The notes below the pieces were generated by a model. The model did no database searches and had not been told where the DNA came from. It saw only the letters and a list, made by a program, of their open reading frames with translations. Below, piece by piece: positions 1 through 7,032 of a DNA stretch of 7,032 nucleotides. Within the stretch, counting starts at the first letter, position 1; each line of letters starts with the position of its first letter. This DNA comes from a virus (lineage: Duplodnaviria; Heunggongvirae; Uroviricota; Caudoviricetes), in IMG/VR virus record IMGVR_UViG_648276650_000006; one strand, written 5' to 3'. The position numbers and the translations under genes were made by a program.

Positions 1-32
1 GCGGGGGCGGGGGGGGGGGGGGGGGGGGGGGG
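1..32. repeat. Homopolymeric poly-G tract at the window edge, probably a sequencing or assembly artefact
   Basis: Seen in sequence: GCGGGGGC followed by an uninterrupted run of about 24 G (9..32) at the extreme 5' end, with no coding or structural context. Confidence 0.5.
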
Positions 33-62
33 CTTTGGGAATATGCGGGTGTGGGGAGATTG

Positions 63-473
63 TCAGTAACCGGTTTGTACCTTATACAGCCGCAGGGTTT
101 TGCTGCCCCGAACAATCTTCACATACAGGGCATTATCTTCCGCGCTGCGTACAAAACCGGCCTTCACATCGCCCTTACAGTCACCACCATCGTAAGGAAC
201 ATTGATGCCGGTCTGGCGCACCAGGTCGATAATCCCGAAGCTTAAATCTTCACAGGCTGGGCCCGGCAGGTCCTGAATCAGGGCAAATTTATGGTCGTCG
301 CTGACACCGGTCAGTGAGCACATGGACGTATTGATGTCGTTTCCCTGGCACCAGTACTCCTGGCCGGGATTGTCTTTATCCATCAGACTTGCCGGAAGCT
401 GAGCGGCACCGGCACTGAAGGCGGCAAGTGACAGAATGAGGGCAGGTACAGCAGAGGTCATTATTTTCAGCAT
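63..473 (-). CDS. Small secreted/periplasmic 4-Cys protein with N-terminal signal peptide (YfjT/YkfB-like, tentative)
   Basis: 136-aa ORF. N-terminus MLKIMTSAVPALILSLAAFSAGAA-QLP has the n/h/c layout of a Sec signal peptide with an AxA-type cleavage site. AGGAAG Shine-Dalgarno lies 6 nt upstream of the ATG at 473. Mature part has 4 Cys, including W-C-x9-C. Family name is from recollection, not a search. Confidence 0.6.
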   Translation of the reverse strand: MLKIMTSAVPALILSLAAFSAGAAQLPASLMDKDNPGQEYWCQGNDINTSMCSLTGVSDDHKFALIQDLPGPACEDLSFGIIDLVRQTGINVPYDGGDCKGDVKAGFVRSAEDNALYVKIVRGSKTLRLYKVQTGY

Positions 474-539
474 GGTCTTCTTCCTGAATTAATCCAGCCC
501 GCTGTCGGGCAAAATGAGAGAGGTTGATATCGGGTGTTA

Positions 540-977
540 TCAGAAGCGCCGGTAGCGAAACAGCTCTTTGCCCTGGTAAAGTGCCACCAGGTCGTCATAT
601 TCCGGCTTCTTCTGGTTGGGTTTAAAGGTCACTACCGTGCCCGGACGGCACAGGTCTTTTACGGTGAGTCCGTATTTCTTGTCCGGAGTAATGGTGAATC
701 CTTTCGACACATCGTTGCGCATGATAGTTATCCAGCCCCACAGGCCGCCTTCGCAGTCTTTAAAGGGTGCGGAACGCACCGTGACCATCCCGCCCAGGCG
801 GTCAACAGACATGGCTTCGCATTTTCCGGTAACCTGACGATGCGCATCGCACCAGAAAATGTTCCCGTTGTTGTCATTAACTACAGCAGGGAGGGTCCGG
901 TTATAAGGCTGAGCCTGAGCGCCCACACAGAGCAGAAGGCTGCCGGTAATACCCAGTACTTTAATCAGTGTTTTCAT
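540..977 (-). CDS. Small secreted 4-Cys protein with signal peptide, paralogous to the 63..473 product (YfjS/YafY-like, tentative)
   Basis: The track ORF 540..1103 starts at a GTG and would overlap the upstream gene by 85 nt. The internal ATG at 975..977 has an AGGA 8 nt upstream, leaves a 41-nt intergenic gap, and gives MKTLIKVLGITGSLLLCVGAQA-QP, a typical signal peptide. Shares the W-C-x9-C pattern with the neighbouring ORF. Confidence 0.55.
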   Translation of the reverse strand: MKTLIKVLGITGSLLLCVGAQAQPYNRTLPAVVNDNNGNIFWCDAHRQVTGKCEAMSVDRLGGMVTVRSAPFKDCEGGLWGWITIMRNDVSKGFTITPDKKYGLTVKDLCRPGTVVTFKPNQKKPEYDDLVALYQGKELFRYRRF

Positions 978-1018
978 TACGTTGGTCCTAAACAGAGAAA
1001 GAATCAGGTAGCGGTCAT

Positions 1019-1555
1019 TCAGGCCCAGACAGTCAGGGCCAGCATCAAAAGCCATACCCAGAAGTAAGCCGGTTTCTGACCGAGAGTTTTCGCCCGCCGC
1101 CACAGATAGAACGGCACCAGCCAGGCCAGTTTGCCGAACGTGGTGGTGTCCACTCCGGCCTTACGCAGGCGTCGTTCATCGAGATACCCCAGAGCAATAT
1201 TGAGCAGCAGCGTGATAAACCAGTACTGCCCACCCGAGACGGCATCATATGCCTCGTCAAATGACATCCCGCTCAATCCTGCAGTCCACAACTCCAGCGC
1301 GTAGCCAATGAAGGGAGCAAATGCCAGCGTCCACACAACGCCACCCGGAATGCGGTTCCCCGGCAGCGCTGGTGGTGTGGTGCTCCGGAGCAGCGTCGAA
1401 GCCAGCGGAGTAGCGGAGACCGGCTGCCACTCTGCCATTCCCTGTCGCCACACCAGAGTGGATGCAGTCAGTTCACCGCGCATAATCAGGCTGGTGATGT
1501 CGTCTTCGGTCACATTGTCGTGGCGTATGCCATTTTTCTCGTAATGCCAGGTCAT
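1019..1555 (-). CDS. Membrane protein with N-terminal DUF4339 (GYF-like) domain and hydrophobic C-terminal half
   Basis: 178-aa ORF. N-terminus WHYEKNGIRHDNVTEDDITSLIMRGELTASTLVWRQGMAEWQP matches the DUF4339 pattern as I recall it (W-Y..G...GP/V..L..L...G.L...TLVW..GM..W.P). C-terminal half has several hydrophobic stretches (DUF2628-like by recollection). AAGGA Shine-Dalgarno about 6 nt upstream of the ATG at 1555; 25-nt gap to the upstream regulator stop. Confidence 0.6.
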   Translation of the reverse strand: MTWHYEKNGIRHDNVTEDDITSLIMRGELTASTLVWRQGMAEWQPVSATPLASTLLRSTTPPALPGNRIPGGVVWTLAFAPFIGYALELWTAGLSGMSFDEAYDAVSGGQYWFITLLLNIALGYLDERRLRKAGVDTTTFGKLAWLVPFYLWRRAKTLGQKPAYFWVWLLMLALTVWA

Positions 1556-1580
1556 TGTTTTTCCTTCTTAACAGAGGTAA

Positions 1581-2204
1581 TTAAATCAGTGTGTTGCCCG
1601 GCTCCTCCTCTGAGGGCCCAGGAGACAGGACTTCACGGATACAGCTGAAGTGCGGAAGGGCCCGGATAAAGCCCGCCTGTGTGGTTAACTGGCTGAGACG
1701 TTTTAGCGGGGTGAAAGTTGTATTGAGGACTGTCACCGCATGGATGGTCGCCAGTGGATGCACGGTGATATGCCCGTTAAGTTCACCGGTGAGGTACCAG
1801 CAGCCGTCGAGTGATATCAGGCGGTACGGGGCCAGTCCGTCACAGCGCTCTCCCTCAGCCAGCAGCAGTACCCGTTGGCAGGCGGTAATAGCACTGACGA
1901 GACGGTAGAACACCAGTGAGGTGGCCGGTGATATAGTCTGTGGCGGTTGCCACACCAGACAGGGCATCCCTCCTGCTGTGAGCAGCATGCCCGCCAGACG
2001 CCGGTCCAGCCCCGGAAAGATATCGGCCAGTCCGGACCGGTGAGCAAAGGTCAGCGCATCCAGCTCACCCTGTACGCCCCCACTGGTGCTGCGCAGGCGG
2101 CATTGCCCTCGTCGATACTCCAGGTCCAGATACATCAGCCGTTCGCGAAAATCCCGTCGCAGGGTACGGACTGACACACTAAACTCTGCAGCCAGCCGGG
2201 CCAT
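1581..2204 (-). CDS. yfjR: HTH (DeoR-type) + WYL-domain transcriptional regulator, YfjR-like; coordinates are the longest canonical-start ORF, which appears N-terminally truncated
   Basis: ORF contains the HTH recognition region LAAEFSVSVRTLRRDF and a literal WYL motif (LDGCWYLTGELNGH). The frame stays open 29 codons upstream (to 2291), encoding (I)TQAERRHDRLAVRLSLIISRLVAGETLN, which completes helix 1 of the HTH. That stretch has no ATG/GTG/TTG; it begins at an ATA codon (2289..2291) with GGAG 7 nt upstream. Symbol is by family recollection; paralogues in other islands are possible. Confidence 0.55.
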   Translation of the reverse strand: MARLAAEFSVSVRTLRRDFRERLMYLDLEYRRGQCRLRSTSGGVQGELDALTFAHRSGLADIFPGLDRRLAGMLLTAGGMPCLVWQPPQTISPATSLVFYRLVSAITACQRVLLLAEGERCDGLAPYRLISLDGCWYLTGELNGHITVHPLATIHAVTVLNTTFTPLKRLSQLTTQAGFIRALPHFSCIREVLSPGPSEEEPGNTLI

Positions 2205-2499
2205 GTTCAGCGTCTCACCGGCAACCAGGCGGCTGATTATCAGTGACAGCCTGACAGCCAGTCGGTCGTGACGGCGCTCTGCCTGTGTTATCTCAAATCT
2301 CCGTAATAATTAACTGACTGAATATGAAATGATTCTAAAGAGGGGGGCGGACAGGGTATGGACATGGAATGAACTATTTTTTATCTGCCACCGGAGGCAA
2401 GCCCAACGCGGCGCACCGTGAAATACGGTGATAAAACACTCAATCCAATGGAGGTAAAACGGACAGGGAGTGTCCTTTCCCAACATGCTGATAACAAGC

Positions 2500-3324
2500 T
2501 CAGGACTGAAACCCACTCAGCATCGCTTCCGCCATCACCCAGAGAGCCCGGTTGAGCTTCACATCGCCGTCGATACCACGCACGGCGCGGGTGTGTGTTC
2601 GCCCACCTTTTGCACTCCGGCCACTGAGCCCGCCCTTAATCAGGTTCTCCTGAATACGCTGGTATGTGGTCCACAGGTCATTGCTCTCATCCTGCCAGCG
2701 GCGTGGGGAGAGTATCTGAGGTGCTGTCACCGGCTGGTGGTCCTCACCAAAACGGTACGTCAGTGCAGCCTGTGCCAGAGCCTGTTGTGCAGGTGGCGGC
2801 AGCATCAGCGACTGCATGGCATCCCGCTTCTCTTCCACACGGTCAAAAATACCCAGCACTTCATACGCCCCCTCAATCACCTGACTCACGACATCTCCTT
2901 TGTGCGGTACCCGCACCTCGCCGAACGATTCACCGCAGACAAGCCCGTTCTGGCATACCGCACGGAATAATCCCGGTAACATCTGATACGAGCTGGTGCC
3001 GTCATGAGAATTGAGCAGAATGATTTCTGGGACTTGCTTGCCAGTAATTTGTCCCTCCCGGCGCAGACGTAACATATGCTTTGTATGCTCGCGACGCCCT
3101 GGGTCACGCACCCGGGTCTGGCAGGCAAAGAAAGGCTGAAAGCCTTCACACTGCAGATTTTCAAGAACGGTAATGGTTGGTATCCAGGTATACCGTGCGC
3201 TACGAGACGCATGCTTCTCCTCGCTGAAGACACTGGGCACTACACGAAACAGCTCTTCCTGGGTTAACGGACGGTCACGACGAATAAGGTTTGCTGCGCC
3301 AAAGCGCGAAGCCAGACGGGTCAT
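2500..3324 (-). CDS. yfjQ: DUF932-family protein (YfjQ/YafZ-like)
   Basis: 274-aa product from the second in-frame ATG (3322..3324), which has a perfect AGGAG 7 nt upstream; the track start at 3339 lacks an SD. N-terminus MTRLASRFGAANLIRRDRPLTQEELFRVVPSVF matches my recollection of YfjQ/YafZ proteins, and length is close to the ~273 aa I recall. Lies directly after a GTPase gene as in CP4-57-type islands. Confidence 0.6.
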   Translation of the reverse strand: MTRLASRFGAANLIRRDRPLTQEELFRVVPSVFSEEKHASRSARYTWIPTITVLENLQCEGFQPFFACQTRVRDPGRREHTKHMLRLRREGQITGKQVPEIILLNSHDGTSSYQMLPGLFRAVCQNGLVCGESFGEVRVPHKGDVVSQVIEGAYEVLGIFDRVEEKRDAMQSLMLPPPAQQALAQAALTYRFGEDHQPVTAPQILSPRRWQDESNDLWTTYQRIQENLIKGGLSGRSAKGGRTHTRAVRGIDGDVKLNRALWVMAEAMLSGFQS

Positions 3325-3350
3325 AAGCAGACTCCTCATGATGGAAAATT

Positions 3351-3387
3351 AAATACAAAAAGCCCCGCCGCAAAATCGCGGCAGGGC
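3351..3387 (-). terminator. Rho-independent terminator-like hairpin between the GTPase and DUF932 genes
   Basis: Minus-strand RNA: stem GCCCUGCCGC / loop / GCGGCGGGGC (10 bp, one mismatch; plus 3362..3387), followed 3' by UUUUUGUAUUU (plus-strand A-run 3351..3361). Begins about 30 nt after the GTPase stop and ends about 25 nt before the DUF932 start. Confidence 0.55.
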
Positions 3388-3418
3388 TCAGGAAACTACG
3401 GGTTAGAAGGGTTAATGT

Positions 3419-4282
3419 TCAGAAGAAGAAATTCCAGACTGCACGGGCGACTGATACCACGATGTCGCGCACAGACTGGATGACTGACCGAACCTGGGCC
3501 GGTATCAGGGGCATGGAACTTACTGTATCCAGTACCGAGCCGACCGTTTCACCAAAATCGTCACGGGCTTTTTTATTAACGGCATCGGTACGAAGTGGCG
3601 CACTGAGTTGTACTGCCACCTGACTACTGGCCTCCCGTGGCAAGCAACGAATCATCCGCTCAGCCATCATCCGCAGCCCCCACTGCAAACGTATCGACAC
3701 CGCACAGACAGGGTTTACAGGTTGGAACAACTCATGCAGCAGACAGATTTTGAGGCTGATATTTCGTTTCTGCTCTGTAGACAGCTTTTCACCACCGCAG
3801 GTGGGTTCAACCTTGTCAGACTGGCTGATAACAAACAACACCTTATGCCGGTATGCTTCACCAATCACCTGCCGGTAAAAATGTTCATCTACGGCCAGCG
3901 CCCGATCATCACCCTTAATCAACCACAGAACCAGATCCAGCTGGGGGAGCTGTTTACGGTACAGCGTGGCATACTCTGTATCCCGGCGCTCAGACTCCCC
4001 GACGCCGGGTAAATCCACCAGCGTCATAAAGCGCTTCCCCACTTGCAGGCGAAAGCGTAAGGGTTCGCGTGTGCAGGCGGTCACATCGCTGACCGGTGAA
4101 ATCTCACCGGTAAACAGGGCATTACATAAGCTGCTCTTGCCCGAGCCAGTTTTACCCATGATGCCAATCACCGGCTCATAGTCAGTAAGCTGATTTATCT
4201 GCTGCAGAATACGCTCTGATGCCCAGTGCGGCAGGTTAGAAAGCGAATGCTGCAGTGACTGTAAACCTTCAAATTGATTCAT
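3419..4282 (-). CDS. yfjP: P-loop GTPase of the YfjP/YkfA/YeeP family (50S ribosome-binding GTPase-like domain)
   Basis: 287-aa ORF. Walker A/G1 GIMGKTGSGKSS, G3-like DLPG. AGGAG Shine-Dalgarno 5 nt upstream of the ATG at 4280..4282. Length matches what I recall for YfjP/YkfA (287 aa). The yfjP versus ykfA assignment rests on the downstream DUF932 and WYL-regulator order and is not certain. Confidence 0.7.
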   Translation of the reverse strand: MNQFEGLQSLQHSLSNLPHWASERILQQINQLTDYEPVIGIMGKTGSGKSSLCNALFTGEISPVSDVTACTREPLRFRLQVGKRFMTLVDLPGVGESERRDTEYATLYRKQLPQLDLVLWLIKGDDRALAVDEHFYRQVIGEAYRHKVLFVISQSDKVEPTCGGEKLSTEQKRNISLKICLLHELFQPVNPVCAVSIRLQWGLRMMAERMIRCLPREASSQVAVQLSAPLRTDAVNKKARDDFGETVGSVLDTVSSMPLIPAQVRSVIQSVRDIVVSVARAVWNFFF

Positions 4283-4300
4283 TACTGCTCCTCTGAAATG

Positions 4301-4335
4301 AAAACAAAAAAGGCAAGACCGTGAGGTTCTGCCTT
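4301..4335 (-). terminator. Terminator-like hairpin plus U-tract in the leader immediately upstream of the GTPase gene
   Basis: Minus-strand RNA: about 11-bp stem (plus 4310..4320 pairing with 4325..4335; one mismatch, one wobble), loop GUGA, followed 3' by UUUUUUGUUUUC (plus A-run 4301..4311), then the AGGAG SD and ATG. It faces transcripts entering from the AT-rich cargo side. Confidence 0.5.
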
Positions 4336-4384
4336 TAATGAGGTATGTTCAGGGGAATGATATATATCTGAATATTTTTAGAAT

Positions 4385-4430
4385 GCTGATAGGCCGTTCT
4401 GTGCCAGGAGCGGACGTTGCGAACGCTTTG
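4385..4430. repeat. Left copy of a degenerate ~46-bp direct repeat (core GTGCCAGGAGCGGAC)
   Basis: Manual alignment to 5363..5408 at a constant offset of 978 bp: core 15-mer 14/15 identical, flanks 9/16 and 7/15, about 30/46 overall. Located in the divergent intergenic region upstream of the Toprim gene. Confidence 0.45.
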
Positions 4431-4570
4431 AGACTGATGATCATTTCAGATGTTAATTAATTAAAGGCATGGTAATGTTTAGGCTCTGTAGGGTAAATTT
4501 CCCGCAGTATTTTCGGTTATCAATAGCTTGTGGAGTTAACTCTCAGAGGGGGCAGTTAGTGGGAACAACA

Positions 4571-5269
4571 ATGGAGGACATCCAATACGAAGAAATGTTA
4601 AATGAGCTTCTATTCGAAAAAGTAATGAAGAATGAAGCAAAAAAACAATGCATTTACATTTTTGTCGAAGGTGAGTCTGAAGAACTTGCTTTTCAACCCT
4701 TACTTGAAGACTGTGGTATAGATTTCGATAAGCTTGGTATTGTAATTGCAAATTACAATGGGATTGGTAACTTAAAACACGCCATAAGACTTCTACATAA
4801 AACATTGAGCCATGATCGACCAATAATAGTAACGTATGATGATGATCATGAAGGAAAAATAATAAAGAAAATAAATAGCCCATTGATCACATACTTTAAA
4901 ATACCATTTAGCCCTGTAGTTTCTTATAATGATGGAACTTTAGGCGGAACATTTGAAGAAAGCTTTCCTAAAGATTGCTTTATAGAAGCTTGCTTTCAGC
5001 AAAATGTTATAGCTAGTTCTTTTTTATCAAAACGTAATGACTTTGAAAAAAAATTCAATCCAACTCAGCCATGGTTAGCTCAATTAGCACAATTCATTTC
5101 TTCCAATGGTGGGACTCCTAATTCTATAAATAAAACAAAATTAGCTGAAAACATGATGCTTTCAGTATCTCAGATACCTGAAACCTATAATGAGTTAGCA
5201 AAGTTAATCATTGATATTAGAAACAAGACCCCAATAAAACACCCTGAAAATGTAGATTTGAATTTGTAA
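4571..5269 (+). CDS. Standalone Toprim-domain protein, a putative nuclease with an OLD/AriB-like catalytic core
   Basis: 232 aa from the ATG at 4571, where G+C content drops; the track ORF begins at ATG 4469, which is an alternative start. Toprim signature seen directly: hydrophobic strand IYIFVEGESEE with E33, and IIVTYDDDHEGK with D90-x-D92-x-x-G95. No Walker A motif in this ORF or in any adjacent ORF. Markedly AT-rich with A/T-ending codons, unlike the backbone. Confidence 0.6.
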   Translation: MEDIQYEEMLNELLFEKVMKNEAKKQCIYIFVEGESEELAFQPLLEDCGIDFDKLGIVIANYNGIGNLKHAIRLLHKTLSHDRPIIVTYDDDHEGKIIKKINSPLITYFKIPFSPVVSYNDGTLGGTFEESFPKDCFIEACFQQNVIASSFLSKRNDFEKKFNPTQPWLAQLAQFISSNGGTPNSINKTKLAENMMLSVSQIPETYNELAKLIIDIRNKTPIKHPENVDLNL

Positions 5270-5362
5270 ATAATACTATTTATTTTCACGCACTGATTTT
5301 TCCGCGTTTGGTAGGTATTATCGCAACGTCCTATTTTCACTCATAGCTGCCCTACCTACCTT

Positions 5363-5408
5363 CTTGATGGGCAGCTTCGTGCCAGAAGCGGACATAGCAT
5401 CCGCTAAA
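5363..5408. repeat. Right copy of the degenerate ~46-bp direct repeat (core GTGCCAGAAGCGGAC)
   Basis: See the left copy at 4385..4430. This copy lies about 95 nt downstream of the Toprim gene stop and contains a small hairpin, AGCGGA / loop CATAGCA / TCCGCT. Confidence 0.45.
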
Positions 5409-5790
5409 GTAAAAGCAGGCGTTAATACCTGTGAGGGGTAAAAACGCGCATCGATTAACAAGAGTAACTGTAGTGATTCACAATCATGAAAAAATTTTCT
5501 TTATACAGAATAAGAAGCCATTTAATATGGTTAGAAGATTTAATTTAAGAGTAAATTATATATAATATATGGCTAATTAACTTATGTTAATGGAACTATA
5601 AAATGAAAACTTCAATGAGTTAATCGGTGGATTAAATAAATATATCGTTCCTGGACTTCAGAGAGATAAGACTAATGATTTTCAAAAATAGATTTCTGAA
5701 CAAGCAGTGAAAGTGTGGGGTGTTAACTAATACATCAAGATATACTTTAAACGGATAATATATAAAGTCACAATCAAAGGTAGATGAAAA

Positions 5791-6813
5791 ATGTTAGACT
5801 TAGAATATGCTGTAACTGAGCCTTTTTTAAATTACCATTTATTTCATGAAGGATTAAATACGAAGGTTAAGGTTTTAACCTCATCACTTAATCATGTGAT
5901 TGAATATTTATTGACGCCAGGCAATGAAAATAAAATGAATGAGCTCATTAAGAAAACTGATAAATCTTGGCAATTCCCGCCGAATTTTTCACTTCCAAGC
6001 CCTCCAGTTGATGAATCAAATTTAAAAAATAAAACATCATCAAGAAGACTAGATAAGGAAGAGGATAATAATGAATTAGATTATCAATTAAAGAAAAAGG
6101 AATTAGCGCAAGAGATGTTGTATTGGTATGTAAGTGAAATGGCTATATTTGGCACTTTTTCTGCTTTGGATGATTGTATTGTCGATATTGATTCTTGGTT
6201 TTCAAGTTGGGCAATGTTTAATAACACTCAAGATAAAAAATCGGAATCAACCAGTAGTAACAAAATTGAAAGGTTATATGATTCACACGAATGGAACATG
6301 AAGAACATAAAGACATTCCTTCCGATTTATGAGTATTTTTCAGCAGTTAGAAATTCAATAGCTCATAGGCAATCCAAAGCATCTCATAAGTTATCAGAGA
6401 TATCAAAATCCCAAGAATTAAAAGAGTCAGTAGAGAGAAACTTCCCAAAAGGTAAACCATTAAGTGAATTTGAATATAATGAAGATATATTCATCTCTCC
6501 AAAAACGTCGTTGCTTTGTTCTCACATAATAAGATTAATTTTCGAAGATATCAATAAATACATCATAAAAAAAATGGGTATTGAAGGTATCATCTACATG
6601 TCATGCAAACTTGCATTTGAACCATCATCTTATAATGAAAGCAAAGTTGTTAACTTAGCTAGAAATAGATTGAACGAAATCGTTAGTGGTCGATATCATG
6701 TAATTATAAAAGGTGAGGATGAAGCCGTTAAGGTTGCTGAGTCACTTGGCATTTGGCGTGATTGCGCTAAATTTCATGCGAACAATATGAGGAAATTAGA
6801 TCCAAAATTCTAA
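5791..6813 (+). CDS. Hypothetical 340-aa protein with an R-x4-H (RNSIAH) HEPN-like motif; candidate Abi-like RNase
   Basis: Long uninterrupted AT-rich ORF. AAGG lies about 10 nt upstream of the ATG, a weak SD. No P-loop. The single motif R187-N-S-I-A-H192 (nt 6349..6366) has the RNxxAH form common in HEPN RNases, within a predicted helical stretch (FLPIYEYFSAVRNSIAHRQ). The CDS call is stronger than the functional call, which rests on one short motif. Confidence 0.6.
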   Translation: MLDLEYAVTEPFLNYHLFHEGLNTKVKVLTSSLNHVIEYLLTPGNENKMNELIKKTDKSWQFPPNFSLPSPPVDESNLKNKTSSRRLDKEEDNNELDYQLKKKELAQEMLYWYVSEMAIFGTFSALDDCIVDIDSWFSSWAMFNNTQDKKSESTSSNKIERLYDSHEWNMKNIKTFLPIYEYFSAVRNSIAHRQSKASHKLSEISKSQELKESVERNFPKGKPLSEFEYNEDIFISPKTSLLCSHIIRLIFEDINKYIIKKMGIEGIIYMSCKLAFEPSSYNESKVVNLARNRLNEIVSGRYHVIIKGEDEAVKVAESLGIWRDCAKFHANNMRKLDPKF

Positions 6814-6899
6814 CCTTATCGCGAAATAATTTATGTGCCAGAGTTTCCCTGGCGCTATTGCGATAATGTTTTATTGGCCTATGCCTCGCAGATTAACAC

Positions 6900-6928
6900 A
6901 GGGCGATGTTAAAAGTCGCCCTTTATAG
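6900..6928 (+). terminator. Candidate intrinsic terminator downstream of the HEPN-like gene
   Basis: Plus strand: stem (A)GGGCGA / 9-nt loop / TCGCCC(T), followed by TTTATAG; about 90 nt after the stop at 6813. Short stem and weak U-tract. Confidence 0.35.
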
Positions 6929-7032
6929 TCAGAACAGATTCCTACTTCCGCTCCTCGCTCATAGCAGACCTTCAGATCCGGGAGGGTGTCCGCTTAGTGC
7001 TGTGAGTTCAACTGATGGACGCAACACACTTA

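Follow-up and report, generated by a model that had tools for sequence, protein, structure and literature searches.

The window analyzed here is the whole 7,032-nucleotide (nt) stretch of the Caudoviricetes record IMGVR_UViG_648276650_000006 in IMG/VR, and the gene in question lies on its minus strand at 1581..2291, where translation, homology and the annotation of an identical copy in Escherichia coli LD93-1 define a regulator of 236 codons plus stop, a YfjR-family protein built of a winged helix-turn-helix (wHTH), a linker and a WYL domain. The protein is 56% identical to YfjR of E. coli K-12 (b2634, in the CP4-57 prophage) over 232 residues (E = 6e-84). Homologs of 213-244 amino acids (aa) occur in Enterobacterales such as Citrobacter, Yersinia, Dickeya, Serratia, Pectobacterium, Photorhabdus, Klebsiella, and Hafnia, and about 13% of complete E. 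coli genomes carry a match. The window protein is an ordinary member of the annotated YfjR family and a fixed backbone gene of CP4-57-like islands of Enterobacterales.

YfjR is one of the remaining uncharacterized “y” transcription factors of E. coli K-12, and a literature search on YfjR, or on CP4-57 together with WYL, found no functional study of its family, which sits in the core of islands that hold much of the variable anti-phage arsenal of Enterobacterales. What the comparison of many loci adds is an operator and promoter model, together with a specificity prediction, for this K-12 y-gene family: two candidate operators, a predicted promoter lacking a -35 element, and a predicted specificity switch in which R45Y goes with a G-to-T change of the site. 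For the window itself the result is mostly a clarification: the gene is ordinary for its family, has a weakened start codon, and does not encode a defense repressor of the BrxR or CapW type. The variable cargo of the island is argued to lie outside the control of the regulator, which matters for predicting the expression of island-borne defense.

Domain architecture of the regulator

Four modules can be laid out along the minus strand of the gene. The wHTH comprises residues 1-66 (2094..2291), as supported by Pfam HTH_DeoR, the AlphaFold2 model and invariant residues, and it contains the recognition helix RTLRRDFRERL (residues 41-51, 2139-2171), placed by the model and by conservation. It is followed by a helical linker of residues 67-137 (1881..2093), with AlphaFold2 helices at 73-86, 97-105, and 123-137 that can be compared with the CapW linker at 71-136, and by the Sm-like WYL beta-barrel of residues 138-192 (1716..1880), for which the model, Foldseek and a PafBC profile match agree. 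The sequence CWYLTG occupies residues 164-169, the codons of W165-Y166-L167 lying at 1791-1799. A short C-terminal tail of residues 193-236 (1584..1715), recognized from the model and the alignment, carries an invariant FxxxLPHF and stands in the place of a WCX domain.

Single-domain profiles score this protein below their limits. Pfam HTH_DeoR matches residues 14-50 (E = 4.7e-4) with 20.3 bits, slightly below its cut-off of 21, and Pfam WYL (PF13280) falls below its gathering score over residues 154-187 (E = 0.09, 13.2 bits vs. 21.8). Precomputed PF13280 matches are present on many homologs, many of those at 55-65% identity passing the threshold. The best profile match is the PADLOC HTH-WYL model PDLC01457 (229 positions), which covers residues 10-201 with E = 1.9e-17, and the family profile matches both WYL domains of PafBC (E = 1.8e-4). 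NCBIfam has no family for the regulator, and a search of the Protein Data Bank (PDB) with the HTH sequence only returned nothing useful.

The AlphaFold2 model, with a predicted local distance difference test (pLDDT) score of 81, shows a winged HTH at residues 3-66 (helices 3-23, 30-36, and 41-51, a strand at 27-29, and the wing at 57-66), linker helices between 73 and 137, and a five-strand barrel at 139-192 whose strands reach a pLDDT of 90-95. About 30 ordered residues follow the barrel, forming helices 197-202 and 206-222, and the remainder is disordered. All of the top 22 PDB matches that Foldseek returned for this model are HTH-WYL regulators (PafBC, BrxR, CapW, DriD), with E-values between 5e-6 and about 1e-2 (1e-3 or below for 18 of the matches) and probabilities of 0.99-1.0. 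Position 1 aside, 36 family members share 53 invariant columns, and the residues invariant among the aligned homologs include R42, T43, L44, R46, D47, and F48 in the HTH and F208, L212, P213, H214, and F215 in the tail.

A sequence-only reading of the window had seen an N-terminal DeoR-type HTH and a literal WYL motif in this protein, and both are borne out by the PADLOC model, the AlphaFold2 model, Foldseek and the PafBC profile. Since the PADLOC model, the PF13280 matches of homologs, the AlphaFold2 model and Foldseek agree, the WYL fold is real and not a chance tripeptide. As for the wHTH-WYL-WCX architecture proposed there, the wHTH, the linker and the WYL barrel stand, and in the AlphaFold2 model WCX is missing, the predicted protein ending 44 residues past its barrel.

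Conserved sites upstream of the regulator

For the region before the regulator gene, 75 non-redundant upstream sequences were aligned and motifs were counted over 84 loci. The sites described in this section appear as sharp islands of conservation within an otherwise variable spacer of 208 nt. The distal one, at 2461..2475, is a candidate operator consisting of the perfect inverted repeat GGACA-CTCCC-TGTCC, the only perfect match in the window. Counted from the start codon, it lies at -180 to -189 in 69 of the 84 loci, with arms of 5-8 base pairs (bp) whose outer bases compensate each other (GGACA/TGTCC, TGACA/TGTCA, CGGACA/TGTCCG, TGGACA/TGTCCA, GTGGACA/TGTCCAC, and AAATGACA/TGTCATTT). A generic repeat finder with 6-nt seeds, applied to 2200-2560 and 4230-4600, reported no inverted repeat upstream of the regulator, because the arms in the window are only 5 bp long; the palindrome emerged from the multi-locus alignment. 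A search for palindromic operators had been proposed for two intervals, and in the first (2292..2500) this inverted repeat was found as a candidate, while in the second (4283..4570) none of the conserved motifs was present. Directly upstream of the distal palindrome, a conserved pair of direct repeats, TGTTR ... GTTRA, is seen at 2479-2497 on the minus strand.

The same palindrome could be interpreted as an RNA hairpin or terminator that ends the preceding DUF932 gene. A terminator-like scan did flag it, as it lies 25 nt past the DUF932 stop codon and is followed by GTTTT. However, its RNA fold is no better than that of shuffled sequences (-9.9 kcal/mol, z = -0.6), and most loci have no T-run after the palindrome. 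It also keeps its distance from the regulator start in those loci where DUF932 has moved downstream, both it and the proximal motif described below staying with the regulator, and changes in its outer bases go together with those of regulator residue 45. The terminator was rejected on the fold score, the mostly absent T-run and the movement with the regulator, and we regard it as highly improbable.

The proximal candidate operator, TGTCC-ATACCC-TGTCC at 2349..2364 on the minus strand, is a multi-locus motif that lies over the -35 position of a predicted promoter. The -10 hexamer of this promoter is predicted to be TAGAAT (2332..2337, minus strand), from a conserved TAnnnT at fixed spacing that takes the forms TAAAGT, TAGAAT, TAAAAT, and TACACT among the loci, and transcription would start near 2325. 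The combination CCTG[T/A]C-N12-TAnnnT is found in 79 of the 84 loci, and the spacer measures 12 nt in 70 of 72 non-redundant loci though its sequence drifts. Inspection of the sequence by eye found no TTGACA-like hexamer 16-18 nt upstream of the predicted -10 and no TG extension. The distal and proximal sites are 109-113 bp apart from center to center in 62 loci.

Two further elements on the minus strand are conserved around the promoter. The A-tract AAAAAATA (2375..2382), near-invariant in the 75-sequence alignment, lies about 50-57 nt 5′ of the predicted start and is possibly UP-element-like, and the conservation profile reveals a leader motif TTCAGTCAGTTAA (2310..2322) between the predicted start and the GGAG of the ribosome-binding region. 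Rfam gave no match in the window at E-values up to 1, and the conserved intergenic blocks therefore correspond to no known RNA. The promoter motif recurs at no other fixed position in the 1.5 Mb of loci, and the palindrome pattern occurs elsewhere only inside the coding sequence (CDS) of the regulator, in eight K-12-type loci. Neither motif is found near the GTPase gene of the island or on the cargo side (4283-7032), even with two mismatches allowed.

Co-variation of recognition helix and sites

The recognition helix is nearly invariant, as is the GACA/TGTC core of the sites, and the one variable position of the helix is residue 45. This residue is arginine in 59/59 loci in which the outer bases are G...C and the site reads TGTCC, and tyrosine in 7/7 loci in which the outer bases are T...A and the site reads TGTCA, at the distal and proximal sites alike. 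Among the seven Y45-type loci, six have the complete palindrome GACA-N5-TGTC at the proximal site, and the other (L051) has TGAC as its right half. Because the seven Y45 proteins range from 59 to 83% identity with the window protein, this type of HTH occurs on different protein backgrounds. Such co-variation is the pattern expected if the regulator reads these sites, from which we infer binding.

Related sites are found beyond the YfjR family. In the cargo zone, WYL regulators were found only in L037 and L038, and both are full-length wHTH-WYL-WCX proteins. The L037 regulator (6749-7654 of that locus, minus strand) has 300 or 301 aa by choice of start, and PafBC is its closest solved relative, its extra 100 or so residues aligning to the WCX of PafBC; the L038 regulator (4215-5093, minus strand) has 292 aa. 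In each case TGACA-N5-TGTCA, 12 nt and TAnnnT precede the gene of the regulator itself, with arms of 15 bp in L038. The operator-promoter module thus seems general to this branch of WYL regulators.

The ATA start codon

The window allele starts with ATA (2289..2291, minus strand) where multi-locus comparison gives ATG. The apparent start-codon lesion that had been noticed from the sequence is real: 79 of 82 related loci start with ATG, and ATA is confined to three 100%-identical copies, those of E. coli LD93-1, Hafnia paralvei ATCC 29927, and Enterobacter sp. Bisph1 (L001, L004, and L022). The ATG-to-ATA change is accordingly confined to one allele, is no sequencing error, and the allele has spread and persisted. 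The minus-strand frame is open from 2309 to 1584, bounded by stop codons at 2312-2310 and 1583-1581. Within it the open reading frame (ORF) list and the AlphaFold2 model place the first in-frame canonical ATG at M30 (2202..2204, minus strand); no ATG, GTG, or TTG in the frame comes before this codon, which begins at 2204, and a product starting there would be without wHTH helix 1 (residues 3-23 in the model). All 35 aligned homologs begin 29 codons before M30, with ATG-ACA-CAG (MTQAERR), and the NCBI pipeline arrived at this 711-nt CDS too in the identical copy of E. coli LD93-1, so that the coordinates 1581-2291 agree with the CDS defined by homology. The Shine-Dalgarno sequence GGAG (2299-2302) stands 7 nt 5′ of the ATA. 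A second change of this lineage is seen 2 nt 5′ of the start (2292-2296, minus strand), where relatives have TTTAAGATG and the window has TTTGAGATA; it creates an out-of-frame mini-ORF, TTG-AGA-TAA, which overlaps the start codon.

One may ask whether this copy is dead or near-null, the ATA start, together with G38S, abolishing useful amounts of protein and leaving the island unregulated here. Initiation at AUA in E. coli amounts to about 1-2% of that at AUG, with a range of 0.02-3% (bioRxiv 10.1101/063800). The restriction of ATA to a single allele points in the same direction, as do the lack of an in-frame start before M30, whose use deletes helix 1, and G38S, a change in the turn of the HTH confined to the same lineage. 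However, the rest of the ORF is intact, and the branch leading to the ATA allele carries 19 synonymous and 6 non-synonymous unique codon changes, M1I and G38S included, which is far from the ratio of roughly 1:3 expected without constraint. This points to purifying selection on the ORF for most of that branch, without decay. Moreover, the identical allele is present in three genera beside at least two different cargos, the GGAG is a good Shine-Dalgarno sequence 7 nt before the ATA, and an autoregulator of low copy number may tolerate weak initiation. We consider a dead copy unlikely; judged from the sequence, the allele may be a functional one of low dosage or a recent null.

Island backbone and cargo

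The window falls into two parts of different composition. Positions 1 to about 4416 have a G+C content of 52-62% and hold six co-directional genes on the minus strand, whereas about 4419 to 7032 has a G+C content near 31% and two genes on the plus strand. Profile scans identify the first backbone genes as a YfjP-like GTPase (3419-4282), a YfjQ-like DUF932 protein (2500-3339) and, after the regulator, a GYF_2/DUF4339 protein (1019-1555), followed in the ORF list by two small proteins with signal-peptide-like N-termini (540-977 and 63-473). On the cargo side, profile scans point to an OLD-like TOPRIM-only protein (4469-5269, plus strand), the real start of which is probably M35 at 4571, and a 340-aa protein (5791-6813, plus strand) with an Rx4H motif (RNSIAH) and weak HEPN/Csx1 matches. 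PADLOC, used here as profile scans only, gave no system convincingly matching this TOPRIM/HEPN-like pair. Enterobacter sp. Bisph1 (L022) has this pair at 100% identity, and L050 has a 78% homolog of the TOPRIM protein but no copy of the second gene.

E. coli LD93-1 matches positions 29-4415 at 100% identity and then has a CDF transporter and ars genes instead; as the identity ends at 4415, the junction of backbone and cargo is placed at about 4416-4419. LD93-1, H. paralvei ATCC 29927, and Enterobacter sp. Bisph1 share this backbone at 100% identity, ATA start included, and an identical backbone beside different cargo implies a very recent transfer between genera and a swap of cargo near 4416-4419. 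Ten genes of the same orientation, 8-85 nt apart, follow the regulator in LD93-1, and this string ends, after DUF905, with antirestriction, RadC/JAB, DUF987, and the toxin-antitoxin pair CbeA/CbtA.

A scan of one genome per species gave a set of 80 loci, and in 64 of these, with enough flanking sequence, a GTPase homolog is found on the same strand within 2.6 kb upstream of the regulator. DUF932 mostly lies between the two, and in about 13-17 loci (e.g., L040-L046) it is found downstream of the regulator. The 7 kb upstream of the GTPase are hypervariable, with 291 ORFs in 198 clusters, and the defense families in the variable zone of the 64 loci include GajA, AriA, LmuB, type I and type III restriction, SIR2, TIR, and UvrD. 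The variable slot of the island is a genuine defense hotspot, and the regulator is a fixed part of the backbone regardless of the contents of that hotspot. Its assignment to a conserved island backbone, already made from the window alone, holds in these 64 loci and in K-12, where the neighbors are the same whatever the cargo.

Several other features were observed around the GTPase gene. The 80-nt gap between the GTPase and DUF932 genes contains a strong intrinsic-terminator hairpin (3360-3389, minus strand; 13 bp, -25.7 kcal/mol, z = -5.0) followed by UUUUUGUAUUU, and the GTPase is probably transcribed as a unit of its own, apart from DUF932 and the regulator. The GTPase gene has in its 5′ leader a conserved hairpin and then a U-run just before the Shine-Dalgarno sequence (4305-4337, minus strand; -14.7 kcal/mol, z = -4.9), which looks like a leader terminator, an attenuator or a short leader RNA. 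Its stem has compensating variants in other loci (GGCAGAACC/GGTTCTGCC vs. GGCGAATCC/GGATTCGCC), and an AG/GA swap weakens it in the window lineage. In the same leader region, TTCAGATATATATCAT is conserved at about 4352-4367 (minus strand), and a promoter-like site on the plus strand (4357-4384), considered as a possible outward promoter that would drive the cargo from the backbone, has no regulator motif and no conservation of its hexamers. At the junction of backbone and cargo upstream of the GTPase, a subset of loci only has a sigma-54-like TGGCAC-N5-GGC (4392-4406 on the minus strand of the window; TGGCACAGAAATGCC in L030).

This arrangement bears on the suggestion that the regulator controls the adjacent cargo, as a repressor of the BrxR/CapW type whose silencing of the TOPRIM and HEPN-like genes would end upon infection or DNA damage. 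The fold class is indeed that of BrxR and CapW, the slot next to the backbone is a defense hotspot, and WYL regulators are known to co-localize with defense islands (PMC9122601). The protein, however, has no WCX and reads CWYLT in place of RWHVR, and no copy of its motifs is found in 4283-7032 even at two mismatches. Two genes and the terminator of -25.7 kcal/mol separate the regulator, which reads away, from the cargo, and the same allele stands beside a CDF transporter and ars genes, which are not defense genes, in E. coli LD93-1. Furthermore, cargo that needs a WYL regulator brings a full-length one of its own (L037 and L038). With backbone neighbors fixed whatever the cargo, the proposed control of the cargo was not supported, and we judge it very improbable.

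Proposed autoregulation of the backbone operon

Control of the backbone operon, which the sequence-only reading had offered as the alternative to control of the cargo, appears favored by the conserved motifs before the regulator gene and by synteny. The reading that we prefer is that the regulator autoregulates its own backbone operon and does so negatively, and we hold it with confidence that comes close to even. In this model a dimer of the regulator would bind the palindrome at 2461-2475 and the site at 2349-2364, both within the 208-nt region before its own gene, and binding would control its own promoter, with the -10 TAGAAT, no -35 and the right half-site exactly 12 nt upstream. The same promoter would drive the downstream backbone genes, which in the window are the GYF/DUF4339 gene and those of two secreted proteins or lipoproteins, and further genes would be controlled as in the identical E. 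coli copy (DUF905, antirestriction, RadC/JAB, DUF987, and CbeA/CbtA), while the divergent TOPRIM/HEPN-like cargo would be outside its control. On the proximal site the dimer is expected to cover about -37 to -25, a position that would allow it to block sigma region 4 or, alternatively, to stand in for the -35 element. For negative autoregulation, proximal occupancy would occlude the position of sigma region 4, with assistance from the distal site some 111 bp upstream. In a newly entered naive cell, expression would then come in a burst and be shut off afterwards, and the ATA start would cut synthesis of the regulator to a few percent of normal, shifting the set-point.

A negative sign is favored because the regulator gene heads a tightly packed string of co-directional genes, because a second perfect palindrome lies at looping distance, because the residues for activation by single-stranded DNA (ssDNA) are absent, and because systematic evolution of ligands by exponential enrichment (SELEX) reportedly found binding without ligand; a review of genomic SELEX lists the “yfjR operon” as the sole target of YfjR (PMC8249747). 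Several points weigh against autoregulation as we read it. Chromatin immunoprecipitation with exonuclease digestion (ChIP-exo) of tagged K-12 YfjR gave zero peaks (PMC8464067). Binding to the operators, the -10 and the start are predictions, and a simple promoter scan did not call the promoter. A promoter without -35 and with a strictly fixed distance from site to -10 fits activator-dependent promoters better (PMC8635444; PMC13004042), and the family lacks both WCX and the ssDNA-binding arginines of CapW and PafB. The co-variation may represent only one or two evolutionary events; the coding region of the HTH adjoins the sites, so that linkage alone could carry both; and the L037 paralog has RTIRRD but TGACA sites, so that R45-to-G is no simple code.

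On the sign of regulation, we lean toward repression and take PafBC-like activation as a serious alternative. According to the latter, the regulator at the proximal site, centered near -31, would recruit or “adapt” the sigma-70 holoenzyme and thereby activate the backbone operon, possibly when triggered by a ligand. In PafBC, GTC at -23 to -28 is recognized by two arginines of one HTH (HTH-B), and the activator replaces the -35 contact (PMC8635444), and the TGTC-N12-TAnnnT described here has the geometry of the PafBC motif tGTCgg(N10)tA(N3)T, likewise without -35 (PMC8635444). DriD sites also lie at a fixed distance from the -10 beside poor -35 elements (PMC13004042). The spacer of 12 nt in 70/72 loci, with the same spacing at two distantly related WYL regulators (31% identity), is in agreement with such a role, as is PafBC being the nearest solved relative by sequence profile. 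The invariant R42 and R46 parallel R46 and R50 of PafB, which read the guanines of GTC, an equivalence that rests on position in the helix and not on alignment, because the HTH-only search of the PDB gave nothing useful. The lack of a ChIP-exo peak under standard growth is what ligand-dependent binding predicts (PMC8464067), and yfjR is expressed although no promoter is predicted for it (PMC9308461).

There are also reasons to doubt activation. A perfect second palindrome about 111 bp upstream typifies looping repressors and does not figure in the promoter descriptions of PafBC and DriD (PMC8635444; PMC13004042), and a regulator at the head of its own operon suits negative feedback. WCX is missing, and R211 and R214 of PafB are replaced by P179 and T182. 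The proximal site would equally occlude sigma region 4 under a repressor, and common descent, not selection, could account for all of the conserved spacing within the YfjR family. Taking both sides together, we hold activation to be a serious rival, though the less likely reading. A broader version of it, more tentative still, would make the YfjR family WCX-less homodimeric WYL activators that adapt or recruit sigma-70 at TGTC-N12 promoters and switch on an “establishment” operon of antirestriction, RadC, and toxin-antitoxin genes, with the distal palindrome as a reservoir or looping site. If true, sigma adaptation would reach beyond Actinobacteria, to a regulator of mobile elements without the canonical ssDNA-sensing residues.

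Comparison with known regulators

One of the closest known systems is K-12 YfjR, with 233 aa against the 236 of the window protein and the same order yfjP (GTPase)-yfjQ (DUF932)-yfjR. Its upstream region likewise has a palindrome, CGGACA-CCACC-TGTCCG, and TGTCC-N12-TAAAGT. The two differ downstream, where K-12 has ypjK-yfjS-yfjT and the window has the GYF/DUF4339 gene and those of two small proteins, and the window allele differs by its ATA start.

BrxR and CapW share with the window protein the winged HTH, the helical linker and the WYL barrel (Foldseek E-values of 4e-5 to 6e-4). CapW is organized as wHTH 1-70, linker 71-136, WYL 137-193, and WCX 193-297, with ssDNA contacts at S144, R164 and R168 (of RWHVR), and R184 (PMC11662680), and its first three modules are nearly equal in length, residue for residue, to those of the window protein. 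As in the BrxR boxes, the candidate operator has inverted arms separated by 5 bp (PMC9122601), and like brxR the gene comes first in the unit that it presumably controls. Nevertheless, about 100 residues corresponding to WCX are missing from the window protein, RWHVR is replaced by CWYLT (x-W-Y-L-[TVI] in the family), and the flanking arginines that contact ssDNA are absent. The FRLxRI strand reads HPLATI in the window protein and FPLTDI in the family consensus. The sites differ as well, with arms of 5-8 bp compared with 10-11 bp, and with a proximal site 5′ of the -10, whereas BrxR sites lie 3′ of the -10 and CapW sites over it (PMC9122601; PMC9122588). Lastly, the window regulator is tied to an island backbone, not to a particular defense system. 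Given the missing WCX, CWYLT and the residues P179/T182 at the ssDNA arginines of PafB, the class assigned to it from the window alone, that of BrxR and CapW, does not apply.

The 300-aa paralog of L037 serves as a bridge to PafBC: it shares 31% identity with residues 11-198 of the window protein and aligns to PafB and PafBC through WYL and WCX. By way of this bridge, R211 and R214 of PafB, which are needed for ssDNA binding, correspond to P179 and T182. The YfjR family is a WCX-less offshoot of full-length regulators, and judged from these residues canonical ssDNA sensing cannot be assumed for it. PafBC itself is the best solved relative by sequence profile (E = 1.8e-4), both have a pair of conserved arginines, spaced by four residues, in the recognition helix, and the PafBC motif equals TGTC-N12-TAnnnT without -35 as far as promoter layout is concerned (PMC8635444). 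It is, on the other hand, a heterodimer with WCX domains and an ssDNA tunnel, whereas YfjR loci have an extra distal palindrome and belong to Enterobacterales, with sigma-70.

DriD of Caulobacter resembles the window protein in its homodimer-type wHTH, helical bundle and WYL (Foldseek E = 8e-5), and its promoters have a palindromic site at a fixed distance from the -10 and a poor -35 (PMC13004042), but DriD has a C-terminal domain of the WCX type and is activated by ssDNA, neither of which is evident in the window protein. Short CRISPR-associated HTH-WYL proteins (PDLC01457) belong to CRISPR-Cas loci and not to an island backbone, and no cas genes lie near the window regulator; being of similar length, they provide a precedent for an HTH-WYL protein without WCX.

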